Shown here: piece after piece, positions 20,573 to 29,764 of the stretch
Position numbering within the stretch: position 1 is the first letter of the stretch
Layout: every line of letters begins with the position of its first letter
From: Lysobacter sp.
GTDB lineage: Bacteria > Pseudomonadota > Gammaproteobacteria > Xanthomonadales > Xanthomonadaceae
Direction of reading: 5' to 3'
DNA: 64,000 nt
Assembly: GCA_050737695.1 (NCBI GenBank)
Contig: JBOHYB010000019.1
Coordinates: 77-64,076, forward strand
Translations under genes and position numbers: made by a program
The notes under the pieces: generated by a model
Database searches by the model: none
Told to the model about the DNA's origin: nothing
The model's input: the letters and a program-made list of their open reading frames with translations, nothing else

Positions 20573-23532
<2,960 letters not shown>

Positions 23533-23542
23533 CCGCGGAGAA

Positions 23543-24313
23543 TCAGTCTTCCCCGGGCAGGTCGTGCGTACCGGCCACGCGATGGTGGTCGACGTCGCCG
23601 CTGCCGACGCTGCGCACGCGCAGATCGCCGCTGACGGTATCGACGTCCAGGCTGCCCGAGCCGATCGTGCCGACCTCGACGCTGCCTTCCACCCGGGCCA
23701 GGTCGATGTCGCCGGAGCCGATGCTGCCGACCCTGACGTCGCCGGCCACGTCGCGGGCATCCAGGTCGCCGGAGCCCACCGAGCCGACTTCGAGCGGCCC
23801 GATGTCGGCCAACTCGGCGCCACCCGACCCGACCACCACGCTCACCGGTCCGGGAACGCCGCGCACATCGGCATCGCCGGAACCGACCACCAGATCGAGG
23901 CTGGCCACGCCGTCGATGTTGGCATCGCCCGAGCCGGCATCGACCTGTACCGCAACGTCATCGGGCAGGGTGGCCGCCAGGTGCATGTAGTTGTAGTTGT
24001 CGCCGAAGAGGTTGAAGTCCCAACCGTCCTTGTCGCGTTCCATCGACACCACCAGCCGGTCGCCGCGGCGCTCGTGCCGGACCTCCAACTGCTCCAGCTT
24101 CTTCACGCTGGATGCACAGGCCTTGCCCTGCATATCCGCCGATGCACCGGCCGTGGCCTTGACGTCGAGGTCGAAGCCGCCAACCTCGAACACGACCGTC
24201 TCGATGCCAGTCAGGTCGGGGCTCAATTCGAACGACCGGGTGTACTCGCACTTCTGTTGGGCGAACGCCGCCAGCGGCAGCATCAGCACGCAGCCAAACA
24301 GGAACTTGCGCAT
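23543..24313 (-). CDS. Exported beta-solenoid protein (DUF4097/DUF2807-like)
   Basis: Start MRKFLFG with signal peptide (AAFA|QQ); repeated GSGD units spaced about 19-20 aa apart. Confidence 0.7.
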   Translation of the reverse strand: MRKFLFGCVLMLPLAAFAQQKCEYTRSFELSPDLTGIETVVFEVGGFDLDVKATAGASADMQGKACASSVKKLEQLEVRHERRGDRLVVSMERDKDGWDFNLFGDNYNYMHLAATLPDDVAVQVDAGSGDANIDGVASLDLVVGSGDADVRGVPGPVSVVVGSGGAELADIGPLEVGSVGSGDLDARDVAGDVRVGSIGSGDIDLARVEGSVEVGTIGSGSLDVDTVSGDLRVRSVGSGDVDHHRVAGTHDLPGED

Positions 24314-24359
24314 GTTCTCTCCTTCGGAATCAAACCGGGCCGTGAGGCCCGGGTGGTCT

Positions 24360-24974
24360 TCATTGCCTGGAGTAGTGGCCGTCGCCGTCGCGGCAGTCAT
24401 CGATGTCGGACTGGGTGATGTCGGCGTAGGGAGCGAACTCCGGTAGCGACGCGGCGAGCTGTTGCTGGGTCTGCATCATCGCGGGCATCCGGCCGCACAG
24501 CTCGGTCACGGCTCGCTGCGCGATCTTTTCCGCCTTGGCCTCGATCTCGGCCTCCATCTTTTCGGTATCTCCGGAGAGCACGCTGGCGAACGCCTGGCCG
24601 ATCGCATCGGTGGCCAGGCTCGCGCCCTGCATGCCGATGGCGGCGCCGGTCTCGGCCATGTAGGCGATCTGGCCGCGGTACTCCAGCACCAATGCGCGCT
24701 GCTCGGCGGTGATGTCGACCTTGCGGCCGTCGATCAGCAGGTCGCCCTGGGGAGTGATCTCGGCGGGAGTTTCGTCGTTGTCGGCGATGTCGATGTTCTC
24801 GGTGGCCATCGCCTCGCGTACTTCGAGGGATACGCCCTCCATCTCCTTGCGGATCTCGGCGTTGACTTCGGCGAGCAGGCCGGGCTCGGGTTGCGCCGGC
24901 TCATCCTTGCCACAGGCGCTCAACCAGGGGATGTATGCGAGGAGGAGCAGGGTCGGAAGAAATTTGCTGTTCAT
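24360..24974 (-). CDS. Lipoprotein, DUF2884/YggN-like
   Basis: Lipobox WLSA-C; AEITPQGDLLIDGRKV..T.EQRAL..YR core recalled from DUF2884. Confidence 0.7.
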   Translation of the reverse strand: MNSKFLPTLLLLAYIPWLSACGKDEPAQPEPGLLAEVNAEIRKEMEGVSLEVREAMATENIDIADNDETPAEITPQGDLLIDGRKVDITAEQRALVLEYRGQIAYMAETGAAIGMQGASLATDAIGQAFASVLSGDTEKMEAEIEAKAEKIAQRAVTELCGRMPAMMQTQQQLAASLPEFAPYADITQSDIDDCRDGDGHYSRQ

Positions 24975-24985
24975 GACAGGTCTCC

Positions 24986-26032
24986 TCAACCTTCATCGCG
25001 CCAGCGGCGCAGGCGGATCGCGCCGGTGATCATCGCGGCGCCGGCCACCACGCCGACCCACAGGCTGGGGCTCAGCACCGCCGACCAGGAGGCCTTCAGG
25101 CCAAGCAGGCTTGCCAGTTGGCCGGCCCCCTGAAAATCGGTGCCTTCCAGGTGCGCCACGTCGACCCAGGTGCCGGGCACGACGCTGAACAGCATGCGGG
25201 CGACGATGTTCTTCCAGAACCAGCTCGATTCCAGGTCGAACACCTGCATCAGGTCGAACCAGCTGACGAAGATGCCGGCGAACAGCGGGATCATGATCGC
25301 CCACAGGAACGGCTTGCTGCGCGCCCAGGCCGAGCACAGCAGCAGCCAGCCGACCGTCGGCAAGGCCCACAGCGCATACACCGGGATCGATGCCACCAAC
25401 TGCAGTGCGACCGAGAGCGGGCTGCCCGGCCCCCAGATCAGGGTCATCGGGCTGCCGTTGTGCAGCAGGGCGACCACGCTGATCAGCAGCAGGAAGGCGA
25501 ACATCGTCACCAGCGCCGCGCCGACGGCGAGCGCCGGGGCCACCAGGGTCGCACTGGCGACCTTGGACAGGACCGTGTCGCGGTCCGACAGCGGCAGCGA
25601 CTTCCAGAACAGCACGCTGCGGTCCTTGCGCTCGTCGTACAGCGCGCCGAGGCAGTAGAAGAACACGACGAAGGCCAGCACGATGAAGGGCCAACTGGCG
25701 GCCATCAACATGCTCAGGTCCATCGCCCCCGCAAGCTCGGCCAGCTCGCTGGGGCCGAGCTTGTCGCTGAGGTAGCCCAGGTCCAGGCCGTTGATCATGA
25801 CCCGGCCGTCGAACTCGCCGTCGGCAAGCGCGCGCCGGGCGGCGACCTCGCCGACGATGAGTGCCATGAGCGTCAGCAGCAGCGATACGCCGCCGGCGAT
25901 CAGCGGGGCCCAGAAGAAGCCGCCCTTGTGCTCCCAGAACTCGCGCTTGAGCAGCAGCTTGAACTTGTGGGTCGGGTGCGCCGGCGCGATCGAGCGCGGT
26001 GCGGCGGGCAGGGTGGTGTCAAGGGCGTTCAT
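24986..26032 (-). CDS. ABC-2 type permease
   Basis: LLKREFWEH, ALYDERKDRSVLFWKSLP (EAA-like loop), multiple TM helices; overlaps the ATPase stop. Confidence 0.85.
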   Translation of the reverse strand: MNALDTTLPAAPRSIAPAHPTHKFKLLLKREFWEHKGGFFWAPLIAGGVSLLLTLMALIVGEVAARRALADGEFDGRVMINGLDLGYLSDKLGPSELAELAGAMDLSMLMAASWPFIVLAFVVFFYCLGALYDERKDRSVLFWKSLPLSDRDTVLSKVASATLVAPALAVGAALVTMFAFLLLISVVALLHNGSPMTLIWGPGSPLSVALQLVASIPVYALWALPTVGWLLLCSAWARSKPFLWAIMIPLFAGIFVSWFDLMQVFDLESSWFWKNIVARMLFSVVPGTWVDVAHLEGTDFQGAGQLASLLGLKASWSAVLSPSLWVGVVAGAAMITGAIRLRRWRDEG

Positions 26033-26946
26033 GCGTAGGTCCCTTTCATGGTGGCGACAAACAGGTCGGCCAGGCCCGGGGTGCGGGTCTCGCCGAAACC
26101 GGCCAGTTGCTCGCGCGGCACGCCGTCGAACAGCATCACGGTCTTGCCGAATGGCAGGGCGCGTTCGTCCAGCGGCTTCAGGGCGCGGGCGGCCTCGGCC
26201 TGGTCGGCATTGACCAGCACTTCGGTGAAGCGCGCGCCGACCGCGTCCATCTCGCCGTTGAGGACGACCTTGCCGTCGCGGATGAACATCACGTCGGTGA
26301 GGATGTGCTCGACCTCCTCGACCTGGTGGGTGGTGATCAGGATGGTCTTGTCCTCGTCGAAGTAGTCCTCCAACAGGCGCTGGTAGAACTGCTTGCGATA
26401 GAGGATGTCGAGGCCGAGGGTCGGCTCATCGAGCACCAGCAGGCGGGCGTCGATCGCCATCACCAGGGCCAGGTGCAGCTGCACGATCATGCCCTTGGAC
26501 AGCTCGCGCACGCGCATCTTCGGCTTGAGCTGGGTGCCTTGGAGGAAGCGCTCGCAGCGTTCGCGGTCGAAACGCGGGTGCACGCCGGCGACGAACTCGA
26601 TCGCCTCCGATACCCGGATCCAGCGCGGCAGCACCGCGACGTCGGCGATGAAGCAGACATCGCGCATCAGCTCGTCGCGGTCGGTGCGCGGGTCACGGCC
26701 GAGCACGCTCATGTGGCCTTCGAACGGGATCAGCCCGAGCATCGCCTTCAGTGCGGTGGTCTTGCCGGCGCCGTTGGGGCCGATCAGGCCGACGATGCGG
26801 CCGGCCGGGATCTCGAACGCGGTGTCGTCGAGCGCGACCTTGTTCTTGTAGGCCTTGCGCAGGTGGCTGGCGCTGACCACGCTGCCGCTGGTCGCGGCGG
26901 TGTCGAGGTTGGTGTCACGGTCGGCGGTGAGGGTCGCGGCGTTCAT
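26029..26946 (-). CDS. ABC transporter ATP-binding protein (YtrB-like)
   Basis: Start MNAATL (26946); Walker A GPNGAGKT, signature LSKGM, Walker B LVLDEPT, TTH switch. Confidence 0.93.
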   Translation of the reverse strand: MNAATLTADRDTNLDTAATSGSVVSASHLRKAYKNKVALDDTAFEIPAGRIVGLIGPNGAGKTTALKAMLGLIPFEGHMSVLGRDPRTDRDELMRDVCFIADVAVLPRWIRVSEAIEFVAGVHPRFDRERCERFLQGTQLKPKMRVRELSKGMIVQLHLALVMAIDARLLVLDEPTLGLDILYRKQFYQRLLEDYFDEDKTILITTHQVEEVEHILTDVMFIRDGKVVLNGEMDAVGARFTEVLVNADQAEAARALKPLDERALPFGKTVMLFDGVPREQLAGFGETRTPGLADLFVATMKGTYA

Positions 26947-27317
26947 CGTGCACCCGCCTGGGCCGGGGCGGCGGCCAGCAGTTCCTCGGTGCTCAGGCCC
27001 AGGCGCAGGATGCGTTCCAGCACCAGCGGCCATTCCTCGGTGAGGAAACGTTCGCGTTCGCTGACCAGCAGTTTCTTTGCGGCTTCTTCGGTCACGTACA
27101 TGCCAAGCCCTCTGCGTTTTTCGACGAGCGCCTCGTCCGCCAACTCCTGGTAGGCGCGCGAGACGGTGATTGGATTGAGCTGGTACTCGGCGGCGACCTG
27201 CCGGACCGAGGGCAGGGCATCACCCGGCTTGAGCACGCCGTCGAGCATCATGGCGACGACGCGTTCCTTCAGCTGGCGGTAGATGGGAGCGCCGTCGCTC
27301 CATTGAATAGCGGACAT
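26943..27317 (-). CDS. GntR-family regulator, YtrA subfamily
   Basis: 124 aa; PIYRQL, GDALPSVR.VA..Y.LNPITV.RAY, RRGLG; short C-terminal helix; directly upstream of ABC genes. Confidence 0.92.
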   Translation of the reverse strand: MSAIQWSDGAPIYRQLKERVVAMMLDGVLKPGDALPSVRQVAAEYQLNPITVSRAYQELADEALVEKRRGLGMYVTEEAAKKLLVSERERFLTEEWPLVLERILRLGLSTEELLAAAPAQAGAR

Positions 27318-27320
27318 GGG

Positions 27321-27620
27321 TCAACCCCGCGGCAAGAATGAGAAGTACGGCATGACGAGGGTCTGCCGGCGGTTGTGCGTACTCGTCCCTGTGGAGCGCG
27401 GTATTTCGGTGGAGCCGGTTTCGATGGTCTGGGCCGCTGCGGTTCCGATGGCGTCGACCAGTGCCTGGGCGGTGCTCAGTTCGGTCGCGATCGGTGTCGC
27501 GCCGGTGAAGGCGGGTGCGGCGTTCGGGCCCGACATCGGGGCCGCGGCGATCAGGCTCACTACCAGCAAGGCGCCGCTGGCCGTGAGGGCGGAAAGCGTG
27601 TTGTGGAGCTTGCGGTTCAT
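27321..27620 (-). CDS. Small exported protein (99 aa) of unknown function
   Basis: Start MNRKLH after AGGA; signal-like N-terminus, Ala/Thr-rich body, C-terminal RRQTLVMPYFSF; stop 3 nt before the GntR start. Confidence 0.75.
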   Translation of the reverse strand: MNRKLHNTLSALTASGALLVVSLIAAAPMSGPNAAPAFTGATPIATELSTAQALVDAIGTAAAQTIETGSTEIPRSTGTSTHNRRQTLVMPYFSFLPRG

Positions 27621-27646
27621 CTGAACGTCCTGCTCGTTGGTAGGCC

Positions 27647-27687
27647 GGTGTTGTATGTAACTATAACACCAAAACACATGCGGTCAA
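27647..27687 (-). promoter_or_regulatory. Sigma70 promoter (TTGACC-16-TATAGT) overlapped by a 24-bp YtrA-type operator
   Basis: -35 at 27682-27687, -10 at 27660-27665; imperfect palindrome GGTGTT-N12-AACACC at 27647-27670. Confidence 0.7.
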
Positions 27688-27865
27688 GTCCCTCGAACCC
27701 AACTAAAGACCTATGCGCGAGTGGCCCCGGATCGCGCCCGCGACCCCGGATTCCGCGGGTTGCCGCCCCCGGAGGTGACTGGGCTGGGAGATTGCCGGCA
27801 TCGCCCGGGGCCGCGACAATGGCGGCTTCGCGCCATGACTGGCGACCCGACAGGAGCGGTTCCGG

Positions 27866-28810
27866 ATGAAGGTTTTGTTGCGCGGCGTTGCCGTGATGTT
27901 GACCACCGTGGTGCTCGCTGCGGTCGTGGCGGTTCCCGCCGCCGCGCAGGAGGCTGCTCCGCTGGAAACCGAGCGCGCCAGGACCAGCTATATGGTCGGC
28001 CATGATGTCGCCCGATCGATCGGCGCCGCGGCGCCGGATATCGACCTGGCGGCGTTCGACCGCGCCGTCGCCAATGCCGTGCAGGGTGGCGAGCCGCTGA
28101 TCGAAGACAGCCAGGTGCCGGTCACCGGCCGCGCGCTGATGATGCGCATCGCCGCGCGTGCCGGCCGGGCACCGGAGGACGCCGAGGTGCCGGAGGTGAA
28201 CAAGGAGCAGGTCGGGTATCTGGTCGGTTCGGACGTCGGCCGCTCGTTGCTGCCGATGAAGGATGAACTCGAATTGCCGATCCTGCTGCAGGCAGTGCGT
28301 GCCGCTCTCGGCGGCGGCGAGTTGCGGATGACCGAGGCCGAACTCGATGCCACCCGTGAAGCGTTCGCCCGGAAGATGCGCGGCCAGTTCGAGGCCCGCA
28401 TGAACGCCGAGGCCGAAACCAACAAGGCCGAGGGCGCGAAGTTCCTCGCCGCCAACAAGCAGCAGAAGGGCGTGTTTACCACGCCGTCGGGCCTGCAGTA
28501 CCGGGTGCTGCGCCAGGGCTCGGGTCCGCGCCCGCGGCCGGGCGCCCGGGTCCGGGTCAACTACGAAGGCAAGCTGCTCGACGACACCGTGTTCGACAGT
28601 TCCTACGAGCGCGGCGAGCCGACCGAGTTCGGCCTCGACCAGGTGATCGCGGGTTGGACCGAAGGCCTGATGCTGATGCCGGTCGGTGCCAAGTACCGCT
28701 TCTGGATTCCCGGCGACCTGGGATACGGTGCCAAGGGCGGCGGTGGCGGCCAGATCGGTCCCAACGCGACCCTGGTGTTCGACGTCGAGTTGCAGGCAAT
28801 CGTCGAGTAA
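27866..28810 (+). CDS. FKBP-type PPIase (Mip/FkpA family) with duplicated N-terminal domain
   Basis: Signal peptide; two SY.VG.DV.RS segments; C-terminal FKBP (VNYEG.L..FDSS..VIAGWTEGL..YG). Confidence 0.92.
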   Translation: MKVLLRGVAVMLTTVVLAAVVAVPAAAQEAAPLETERARTSYMVGHDVARSIGAAAPDIDLAAFDRAVANAVQGGEPLIEDSQVPVTGRALMMRIAARAGRAPEDAEVPEVNKEQVGYLVGSDVGRSLLPMKDELELPILLQAVRAALGGGELRMTEAELDATREAFARKMRGQFEARMNAEAETNKAEGAKFLAANKQQKGVFTTPSGLQYRVLRQGSGPRPRPGARVRVNYEGKLLDDTVFDSSYERGEPTEFGLDQVIAGWTEGLMLMPVGAKYRFWIPGDLGYGAKGGGGGQIGPNATLVFDVELQAIVE

Positions 28811-28957
28811 GCCGGCCGCAAGGCCCGTCCCGCAGTTGCGGCCGGGCCGCATTCACGACGCGCCGATACGGCGCCGTTCAGGCTGCCGTCGACACAGTGG
28901 CGCGCTGGCGTCCGGCGCTGTCGAGCGCATCCACCATCCACAGGAGCTCCACCTCTC

Positions 28958-29764
28958 ATGAAGTCCGATTTGATGAAGCCTGCCACCCGAACCGTCGCGC
29001 TGCTGGCCGTGGCCACCCTGTCGCTTGCCATCGCCGCCTGCCAGCCGGGCGACAAGACCGCCGACGCCGACAAGGCTGACGCGACCGCCGACACCGCGGC
29101 GTCGGCCGAAGACGGTTTGAAGATCGAGGGGTTGGCGAACGAGAAGGAGCAGGTCAGCTACATGATCGGCCGCGACATCGCCCGTTCGCTGGAAGAGGTC
29201 AAGGACGAGATCGACGTCGCGACCCTGTCGAAGGCGATCACCGCCGGCCTGGCCGGCGAGAAGTCGCTGATGACCGACGAGCAGGCCACCCAGGTGCGCG
29301 AGACGTTCGCCCAGCGGATCCAGGCCGAGCGCATCGCCGAGATGATGGCGACGGCGAAGACGAACCAGGAAGAAGGCGCCAAGTTCCTCGCGGACAACGC
29401 CAAGAAGGAAGGCGTCAAGACCACCGAGTCCGGCCTGCAGTACCAGGTCATCACCGAAGGCAAGGGAGCCAAGCCGGACGGCGACGACGTGGTGCGCGTG
29501 CACTACAAGGGCACCCTGCTCGACGGCGAGACCTTCGACAGTTCATACGATCGCAATGAACCGGCGGTATTTTCGCTGCAGCAGGTCGTGCCGGGCTGGC
29601 AGGAAGGCATCGCCTTGATGCCGGTGGGCAGCAAGTACCGCTTCTGGATTCCCAGTGAGCTCGGCTATGGCGAGAAGGGCACCCCGGGTGGCCCGATCGG
29701 ACCGAACGCGGTGCTGGTGTTCGAGGTCGAGCTGCAGGACATCGTGCAACCGCCGACCGAATGA
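28958..29764 (+). CDS. FKBP-type PPIase, lipoprotein (Mip-like)
   Basis: Lipobox IAA-C; single SYMIG N-domain; VHYKG..FDSSY..VVPGWQEG FKBP domain. Confidence 0.92.
   Translation: MKSDLMKPATRTVALLAVATLSLAIAACQPGDKTADADKADATADTAASAEDGLKIEGLANEKEQVSYMIGRDIARSLEEVKDEIDVATLSKAITAGLAGEKSLMTDEQATQVRETFAQRIQAERIAEMMATAKTNQEEGAKFLADNAKKEGVKTTESGLQYQVITEGKGAKPDGDDVVRVHYKGTLLDGETFDSSYDRNEPAVFSLQQVVPGWQEGIALMPVGSKYRFWIPSELGYGEKGTPGGPIGPNAVLVFEVELQDIVQPPTE

Follow-up and report, generated by a model that had tools for sequence, protein, structure and literature searches.

A probable ortholog of the self-repressed Xanthomonas hpaR1/ytrA operon in Lysobacter sp. and its conserved small first open reading frame

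Introduction

Is the six-gene cluster on contig JBOHYB010000019.1 of Lysobacter sp. (GenBank assembly GCA_050737695.1) a new envelope system, or does it belong to an operon type that has already been described? The cluster is located in a 64,000-nucleotide (nt) stretch of this contig (positions 77 to 64,076), which is called the window below; the source genome is 3.28 Mb in size with 67% G+C. As read from the list of open reading frames (ORFs) and the sequence of the window, all six ORFs are co-oriented on the minus strand. They encode a small protein, a GntR repressor of the YtrA subfamily, the ATPase and the permease of an ATP-binding cassette (ABC) transporter, a DUF2884 lipoprotein and a DUF4097 (Toastrack, LiaG-like) protein (Table 1). 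The intergenic gaps read off the sequence were 3, −4, −4, 11 and 46 nt, both overlaps being ATGA, in exact agreement with a first-pass annotation of the locus made from the sequence alone. The module is near-universal in the Xanthomonas/Lysobacter order (40 of the 41 genomes searched), and its repressor is known as a global regulator of virulence and exopolysaccharide in crop pathogens.

The first-pass annotation had called the system uncharacterised and knew of no functional study of it in this lineage. The former was overstated, as the neighbourhood has been catalogued with XAC1545 as its type (PMC11237479). The latter does not hold for Xanthomonas, a member of the same family, in which the HpaR1/YtrA ortholog has been studied by deletion mutants, RNA sequencing (RNA-seq), footprints and chromatin immunoprecipitation with exonuclease treatment (ChIP-exo) (PMC4730234, PMC6430473, and Zhou 2017 via PMC6746942). 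Our results indicate that this Novilysobacter operon is very probably orthologous to hpaR1/ytrA of Xanthomonas, of the XAC1545 type and self-repressed. As such it adds an ordinary ortholog to a described and partly studied type and is not a new system.

Results and Discussion

The repressor gene and its neighbourhood

The repressor matched PF00392 in Pfam at residues 13–75 (E 5.4e-15) and matched short GntR structures over its full length, namely 3TQN (E 2.5e-32), 4R1H, 3NEU, 6SBS and 2DU9/2EK5. The YtrA subfamily is described as proteins of about 120–130 amino acids (aa) with a C-terminal part of about 50 aa that consists of two helices, and without a ligand-binding domain (PMC6746942). The protein encoded in the window has the size and layout of this subfamily, with 124 aa, a short C-terminal part and no ligand-binding domain.

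The YtrA-type regulator of Xanthomonas goes by two names, HpaR1 for the X. campestris protein (XC_2736) and YtrA for that of X. citri. Genome G194 was used as the X. campestris reference, being the sole exact match to the published 31-nt HpaR1 site of the gumB promoter among 401 genomes of the family. The GntR protein of the window was 85% identical to HpaR1 over 111 aa; the next-best GntR matches in X. campestris reached at most 33%, and the other GntR proteins of the window's genome at most 42%. The gene order in G194 is fumC, a gene for a 149-aa lipoprotein, the genes for the DUF2884 lipoprotein, the Toastrack protein, the permease, the ATPase and HpaR1, and an 82-aa ORF, past which lie a divergent btuE, an FKBP isomerase gene and ugd. 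In either genome the operon lies between fumC and the FKBP and ugd genes, which makes the two operons positional orthologs.

Besides the flanks, promoter, operator, the five annotated families and the upstream small ORF are common to both. The gene set of GNTR-HTH, ABC ATPase, permease, Toastrack and DUF2884 that was catalogued with XAC1545 of X. citri as its type (Ravi et al. 2024, PMC11237479) is present in full in the window. As in an operon, the GntR and ABC genes are co-located and their stop and start codons overlap; the data on repression are those of the X. campestris ortholog. Some differences were found. The Toastrack gene precedes the DUF2884 gene in X. campestris and in XAC1545, whereas in the window the lipoprotein gene comes first, and only X. 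campestris has the extra 149-aa lipoprotein gene and the divergent btuE between the operon and the FKBP genes. Unlike the Xanthomonas hosts of hpaR1, the source organism is not a known plant pathogen.

Derepression of the orthologous operon in X. campestris

HpaR1 is reported to repress its own expression (PMC4730234), and ppGpp strengthens its binding to DNA (PMC12976361). Deletion of the GntR gene, with derepression as the expected outcome, had been suggested in the first-pass annotation as a check of its proposal. The published hpaR1 deletion in X. campestris gave this outcome, with four downstream genes up 13–15-fold. In the RNA-seq data of the hpaR1 mutant (PMC6430473 Table S1), XC_2737, an ABC ATPase gene named 'nodI', was up 15.0-fold, and the hypothetical genes XC_2738, XC_2739 and XC_2740 were up 13.3-, 15.0- and 13.8-fold. 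The hypothetical gene XC_2741 was up 2.3-fold and XC_2735 (btuE) was down 2.9-fold. Judging by gene order, XC_2737 to XC_2740 would correspond to the ATPase, permease, Toastrack and DUF2884 genes.

The same table lists XC_0220 (hypothetical) as 4177-fold up, and XC_0217–0219, which include genes for a major facilitator superfamily (MFS) transporter and a methyltransferase, as 6–32-fold up. This induction far exceeds that of HpaR1's own operon.

A single promoter overlapped by the operator

The sigma-70-like promoter ahead of the small ORF matched the consensus at 10 of 12 positions and was the sole promoter-like site in 23300–28000 (a mean of 0.4 was found in shuffled sequences). It overlaps a 24-bp palindrome, GGTGTTATAGTTACATACAACACC, and the one clear promoter/operator described in the first-pass annotation was thereby found again. 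The palindrome is an exact fit to GGTG-N16-CACC, the motif recognised by X. citri YtrA as defined by ChIP-exo (Zhou 2017, quoted in PMC6746942). A long palindromic operator of about 24 bp with distant half sites is a further trait of the YtrA subfamily.

The exact motif was located at the equivalent position in 68 of 86 related loci, and the operator consensus across loci was GGTGTTATAGTTGCATACAACACC. Its extended form, GGTGTT-N12-AACACC, occurred once in the 3.28-Mb genome. The distance from the −35 box to the operator was constant across aligned loci, the −35 and −10 boxes were each at least 90% conserved (69 aligned loci), and promoter and operator were far better conserved than the surrounding coding sequence. 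Novilysobacter antarcticus (L060) and X. campestris likewise have the arrangement TTGAC(N)-16-TATAGT. The X. campestris promoter reads TTGACT-16-TATAGT and its operator, GGTGTTATAGTTGAATACAAAACC, has one mismatch to GGTG-N16-CACC. Autorepression from one promoter/operator, as originally supposed for this locus, is well supported by the operator together with the data on the Xanthomonas ortholog.

Another conserved element, (C/T)TATG(C/A)C(A/T)T(C/T)AGTTGGGT, was present in most Lysobacteraceae loci and in X. campestris, some 10 nt ahead of the −35 box; its sequence in the window is CATAGGTCTTTAGTTGGGT (27697–27715, minus strand). This element could be the site of a second regulator or an UP-like element. 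Inside the start of the small ORF, CACAACAC (27605–27598) is similar to ACAACACC, the right half of the operator. Synonymous variation in the initial seven codons of this ORF (27597–27620, minus strand) was nearly zero in 36 loci, which suggests an added constraint at the level of DNA or RNA; the constrained start may be an auxiliary half-site or reflect translation initiation.

A conserved core with a variable accessory end

The survey comprised 80 loci of Lysobacteraceae together with 17 genomes of the order from outside this family. Across all of them the small ORF, GntR, ATPase and permease formed an invariant core. Of 41 genomes sampled from the order, 40 encoded the permease, whose closest relatives were those of Novilysobacter, Lysobacter, Luteimonas and Thermomonas. 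Within the family, identity to the window was 82–97% for GntR, 76–95% for the ATPase and 60–93% for the permease. No part of the operon is as conserved, or as little studied, as the operator and the small first gene.

DUF2884 genes were found in nearly all loci of the family, often as two tandem paralogues. Toastrack genes were found in about one third of them, on either side of the lipoprotein gene according to species, and neither family was detected in the 17 genomes from outside the family. The two accessory proteins had been taken as parts of the module; this distribution shows that they are not fixed parts of it. Gene content at the accessory end turns over quickly between species, making this end a hotspot within the operon. 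In the nearest species, Novilysobacter erysipheiresistens (L013:7078–8593), the permease was 93% identical, the Toastrack gene and an adjacent fumC were absent, and the downstream neighbours were different. Two tandem DUF2884 genes were located there, only 40% identical to that of the window.

Accessory proteins and the hairpin ahead of the Toastrack gene

The lipoprotein matched PF11101 (DUF2884; E 3.5e-16) and has a lipobox, LSAC, with Gly at position +2, as well as a conserved Cys pair. Its AlphaFold2 model (predicted local distance difference test score, pLDDT, 85) consists of three long helices and a small beta hairpin, and no fold match with E below 0.7 was found in the PDB. Ravi et al. 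suggest a role of DUF2884 as an importer-type solute-binding protein (PMC11237479). We rejected a classical protein of this class, as the model does not have its two-lobed alpha/beta fold. The Toastrack protein matched PF13349 (E 1.5e-6) and, under the cut-off, LiaG of NCBIfam (34.5 bits); it is a secreted protein with a signal peptide (...LAAFA/QQ) and a conserved Cys pair.

The gap of 46 nt between the two genes contains a hairpin, CCGGGCC-UCAC-GGCCCGG, followed by UUUGAUU. The 62-nt stretch with the hairpin had a folding energy of −23.7 kcal/mol (z −3.2), and the hairpin was without a counterpart at the matching place in N. antarcticus or X. campestris. As the hairpin is terminator-like, co-transcription of gene 6 is less certain than that of genes 1–5. 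An operon of genes 1–5, with the Toastrack gene as a separately expressed and recently shuffled neighbour, would agree with this strong hairpin and its short U tract and with the species-dependent presence and position of the gene, which is absent from the closest species. The probability of this arrangement is nevertheless low: no promoter-like site was found ahead of the Toastrack gene in the scan of 23300–28000, and the X. campestris Toastrack gene lies inside the operon and is derepressed 15-fold alongside the others.

The small first ORF

The small ORF had a G+C content of 0.85 at third codon positions (GC3) and of 0.57 and 0.60 at the first and second, a pattern typical of true genes at 67% G+C, and from this and its conserved position it looks coding. 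In all 69 family loci an ORF ended 2–4 nt (8 nt in one locus) before gntR. No match was found in Pfam or NCBIfam, and database relatives carry only the names 'hypothetical' or 'secreted protein'. The homologues range from 55 to 164 aa. The encoded protein starts with a basic N-terminus, MNRKLHNT, which is followed by one hydrophobic segment, a variable acidic or Ala-rich linker and a conserved C-terminal RRQTLVMPYFSFLPRG. The end motif is R-x-x-L-x-M-P-Y-F-S-F and is followed by 4 or 8–10 residues; P-[YF]-[FY]-S-F was invariant across the 69 family loci. Since the motif was kept through many synonymous changes, with three codons for Pro, four for Ser and two for Tyr, it is selected at the protein level.

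Related motifs, MPYYSF and LPYFSF, were found in other families of the order, at loci without DUF2884 and Toastrack genes. Because the motif is kept where both accessory proteins are absent, its partner would lie within the core and would most plausibly be the permease. No other real ORF of the genome contained MPYFSF, and a general sorting signal was ruled out by this restriction to the small ORF. The small ORF of X. campestris has 82 aa and ends in SLSMPYFSFAQVLRPRS. It is evidently unannotated in strain 8004, as the numbering leaves no gene between XC_2735 and XC_2736, and it is likewise absent from the scheme of Ravi et al. 2024 (PMC11237479). Conserved yet missing from published descriptions of the operon, the small ORF is its sole poorly described part.

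The basic N-terminus and single hydrophobic segment were present in all homologues and predict a single-pass topology. In most homologues the segment precedes a Pro, and because this residue sits where a signal-peptidase site would be, an uncleaved membrane anchor is more likely than a secreted product. The first-pass annotation had favoured export of the small protein as a cargo or signal, which would make it a secreted cargo or signal peptide of the ABC transporter in an antimicrobial-peptide or cell-wall-stress response like Pmt or Ytr. The small ORF is indeed the first gene and has a hydrophobic N-terminus, PmtR and PmtA were the best NCBIfam matches of repressor and ATPase, and lipid II cycle inhibitors induce the ytr operon of Bacillus subtilis (PMC12772383). 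However, the Pmt matches were far under their cut-offs, and the protein's own hydrophobic segment would direct Sec insertion and make an ABC exporter unnecessary. The Pro directly after the segment argues against cleavage. In B. subtilis, YtrG, a protein of 45 aa that has one membrane helix and a basic head in the cytoplasm, is a functional, protective part of ytr and neither toxin nor cargo (PMC13729164). We therefore consider a secreted cargo or signal peptide highly improbable and an anchored protein the better reading.

It has also been considered that the anchored protein is the signal input for HpaR1, a repressor without a ligand-binding domain. Its invariant tail outside the membrane (RxxLxMPYFSF) would bind to the permease or act as an envelope sensor. 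The short head in the cytoplasm would pass the state of the transporter or of the membrane on to HpaR1, for instance by tethering the repressor to the membrane. The universality of the ORF, its tight spacing ahead of gntR and the strong selection on its C-terminus at the protein level are the grounds for this proposal, which as a whole, tail and head together, we regard as rather improbable. If it were true, a general logic would emerge for operons of a small membrane protein, YtrA and an ABC transporter, from YtrG of Bacillus to Xanthomonas.

The ABC transporter

The ATPase matched ABC_tran of Pfam (E 1.6e-19). Its best NCBIfam match was PmtA with 136.5 bits against a cut-off of 350, and that of the GntR protein was PmtR with 56.2 bits against 200; with both scores far below these equivalog cut-offs, the two proteins fall outside PmtA and PmtR. 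The permease gave a weak match to ABC2_membrane_5 (E 5e-4, under the Pfam cut-off), and a sequence search of the PDB with permease and lipoprotein gave no matches. The AlphaFold2 model of the permease had a pLDDT of 83 and a predicted template modelling score (pTM) of 0.81. The best PDB fold matches of this model were all ABC-2 permeases, namely CcmB, NosY, ABCA4, PmtD and ABCG, and the model suggests that the permease likely belongs to the ABC-2 fold class, with no close solved relative.

A transporter that moves nothing is one way to read these matches. ATP hydrolysis would then drive the periplasmic partners (Toastrack and/or DUF2884), as in NosDFY(L) or LolCDE, with the small protein as a tether. 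NosY was among the best fold matches (probability 0.92–0.97), the Nos system likewise combines an ABC-2 permease with a periplasmic beta-helix protein and a lipoprotein, and the lipoprotein model is not a solute-binding fold. The template modelling (TM) scores to NosY were, however, just 0.38–0.47. The Toastrack gene is absent from about two thirds of the family loci, and outside the family neither accessory gene was found despite the kept core. An essential partner must therefore lie in the four-gene core. This use of ATP hydrolysis is unlikely, and transport proper is the preferred reading.

Comparison with other repressor–transporter systems

Cold is one of the inducers of the ytrGABCDEF type of B. 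subtilis. This operon shares with that of the window a small single-pass protein encoded first, a YtrA repressor, an ABC ATPase with an ABC-2-like permease and, probably, self-repression. The first-pass comparison with its design, based on a YtrA-type GntR and an ABC transporter that are preceded by a small membrane protein and joined by accessory proteins of the periplasm, was appropriate. The B. subtilis operon encodes two transporter modules, YtrB2CD and YtrE2F2 (PMC13729164), whereas the window has no second transporter (YtrE/YtrF) and one permease gene in place of YtrC and YtrD. At 99 aa, the small protein of the window is longer than YtrG (45 aa) and has both a conserved end motif and a long tail on the outer side; the likeness is one of design. 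Periplasmic DUF2884 and Toastrack proteins are additions of the window relative to ytr.

The pmtR-pmtABCD operon of Staphylococcus aureus likewise combines a YtrA-type repressor with an ABC-2 exporter, and the permease had PmtD among its fold matches. Two ATPases and two permeases make up Pmt, whose cargo peptides are encoded elsewhere; the window has one gene for each. NosDFYL includes a periplasmic beta-helix protein and a lipoprotein besides an ABC-2 permease, and CcmABCD has a small single-pass subunit, CcmD. The similarity of both to the window is weak, with no common accessory families, and is an analogy of architecture. A GntR-ABC efflux system of Acinetobacter baumannii was considered as a relative and set apart by its description alone, as an activator system, in the portion of PMC13104710 searched, which mentions no lipoprotein or DUF accessory genes.

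Proposed mode of action

A dimer of the 124-aa repressor would bind the 24-bp operator. Because the operator contains the −10 box, the bound repressor would block RNA polymerase and silence its own operon, as shown for the ortholog. A signal, presumably a perturbation of the membrane or envelope, would lift repression and give one transcript. From it the small single-pass membrane protein would be made, then more repressor, which starts 3 nt past the stop of the small ORF, and an ABC-2 (type V) transporter, probably with two copies each of ATPase and permease. The helical DUF2884 lipoprotein and the Toastrack beta-solenoid would follow as accessory proteins, predicted to act in the periplasm. 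The four-gene core would be the conserved machine and the accessory genes would depend on the lineage. The small protein is most likely an integral partner of the permease like CcmD or YtrG. The transporter would export or extract a compound of the membrane or envelope rather than import a solute.

Several observations weigh against a simple self-repressed exporter operon of six genes. HpaR1 in Xanthomonas also activates distant genes (gum, engXCA) and is more than a local repressor. For the permease, the fold matches obtained were weak ones (E at least 0.15, TM 0.3–0.47), so that 'ABC-2 exporter' stands on modest evidence. The hairpin before the Toastrack gene may lower or uncouple its expression here.

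Candidate targets elsewhere in the genome

Only two close operator-like sites were found elsewhere in the genome. The first, GGTGATATACCTATATACAACACC (C2:6020–6043), lies 75 nt upstream of genes for a membrane fusion protein (MFP) and two resistance-nodulation-division (RND) proteins that are MdtABC-like (C2:6095–13869). The X. campestris ortholog of the MFP gene has GGTGTTGTAGGCAAGTAAACCACC, a GGTG-N16-CACC site, about 50 nt upstream (L116:2656–2679). In the hpaR1 mutant XC_1970–1972 (czcB, acrD, acrD) were up 292-, 222- and 14-fold (PMC6430473 Table S1), and gene content and position suggest that these genes are the X. campestris MFP/RND locus examined here. They are the most strongly derepressed transport genes of the mutant. 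The MdtABC-like RND pump is probably also governed by the HpaR1-type repressor, as a conserved direct target. The small membrane protein and this operator-marked link to an RND pump are modest new leads.

The second site, GGTGTTGTACTTTACCAACACACC (C42:9728–9751), has one mismatch; 36 nt downstream of it begins an ORF of 69 aa and low complexity, which is followed by a PaaI-type thioesterase gene. This locus could be a further member of the regulon. A second YtrA-type module (C24:11086–14344) encodes a 136-aa GntR protein (35% identical), an ABC ATPase and a 619-aa permease, with the promoter palindrome CTGTAC-N11-GTACAG. Because its operator differs and a small upstream ORF is lacking, this module is regarded as a paralogue outside the system.

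Coordinates and flanks of the operon

Table 1. Features of the operon and its flanks. Positions are those of the window; bp, base pairs.
Feature	Position	Strand	Description
Sigma-70-like promoter	27687–27660	−	−35 TTGACC 27687–27682, 16-nt spacer, extended TG, −10 TATAGT 27665–27660
Operator palindrome, 24 bp	27670–27647	−	GGTGTTATAGTTACATACAACACC; GGTG-N16-CACC; −10 box inside left half
Small ORF	27620–27321	−	99 aa; GC3, positional conservation
GntR repressor, YtrA subfamily	27317–26943	−	124 aa; PF00392
ABC transporter ATPase	26946–26029	−	305 aa; ABC_tran; start overlaps gntR stop (ATGA)
Permease, ABC-2 (type V) kind	26032–24986	−	348 aa; start overlaps ATPase stop
DUF2884 lipoprotein	24974–24360	−	204 aa; PF11101
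Hairpin, then UUUGAUU	24325–24352	−	CCGGGCC-UCAC-GGCCCGG; 7 G-C pairs; lipoprotein–Toastrack gap
DUF4097 (Toastrack, LiaG-like) beta-solenoid protein	24313–23543	−	256 aa; PF13349
Long inverted repeat	23486–23534	none	between convergent ends of operon and fumC; read from sequence
fumC	21994–23532		convergent with operon
ugd	29931		beyond FKBP genes

A scan of 23000–28200 against Rfam matched no RNA family, and a riboswitch or leader RNA is thus without support. The inverted repeat between the ends of the operon and fumC reads GGCTATTGG.GGATCCCGC...GCGGGATCC.AATAGCC and is possibly a two-way terminator. Divergent from the operon, two tandem genes for FKBP-type (Mip-like) peptidyl-prolyl isomerases, both with export signals, were located at 27866–29764 on the plus strand.

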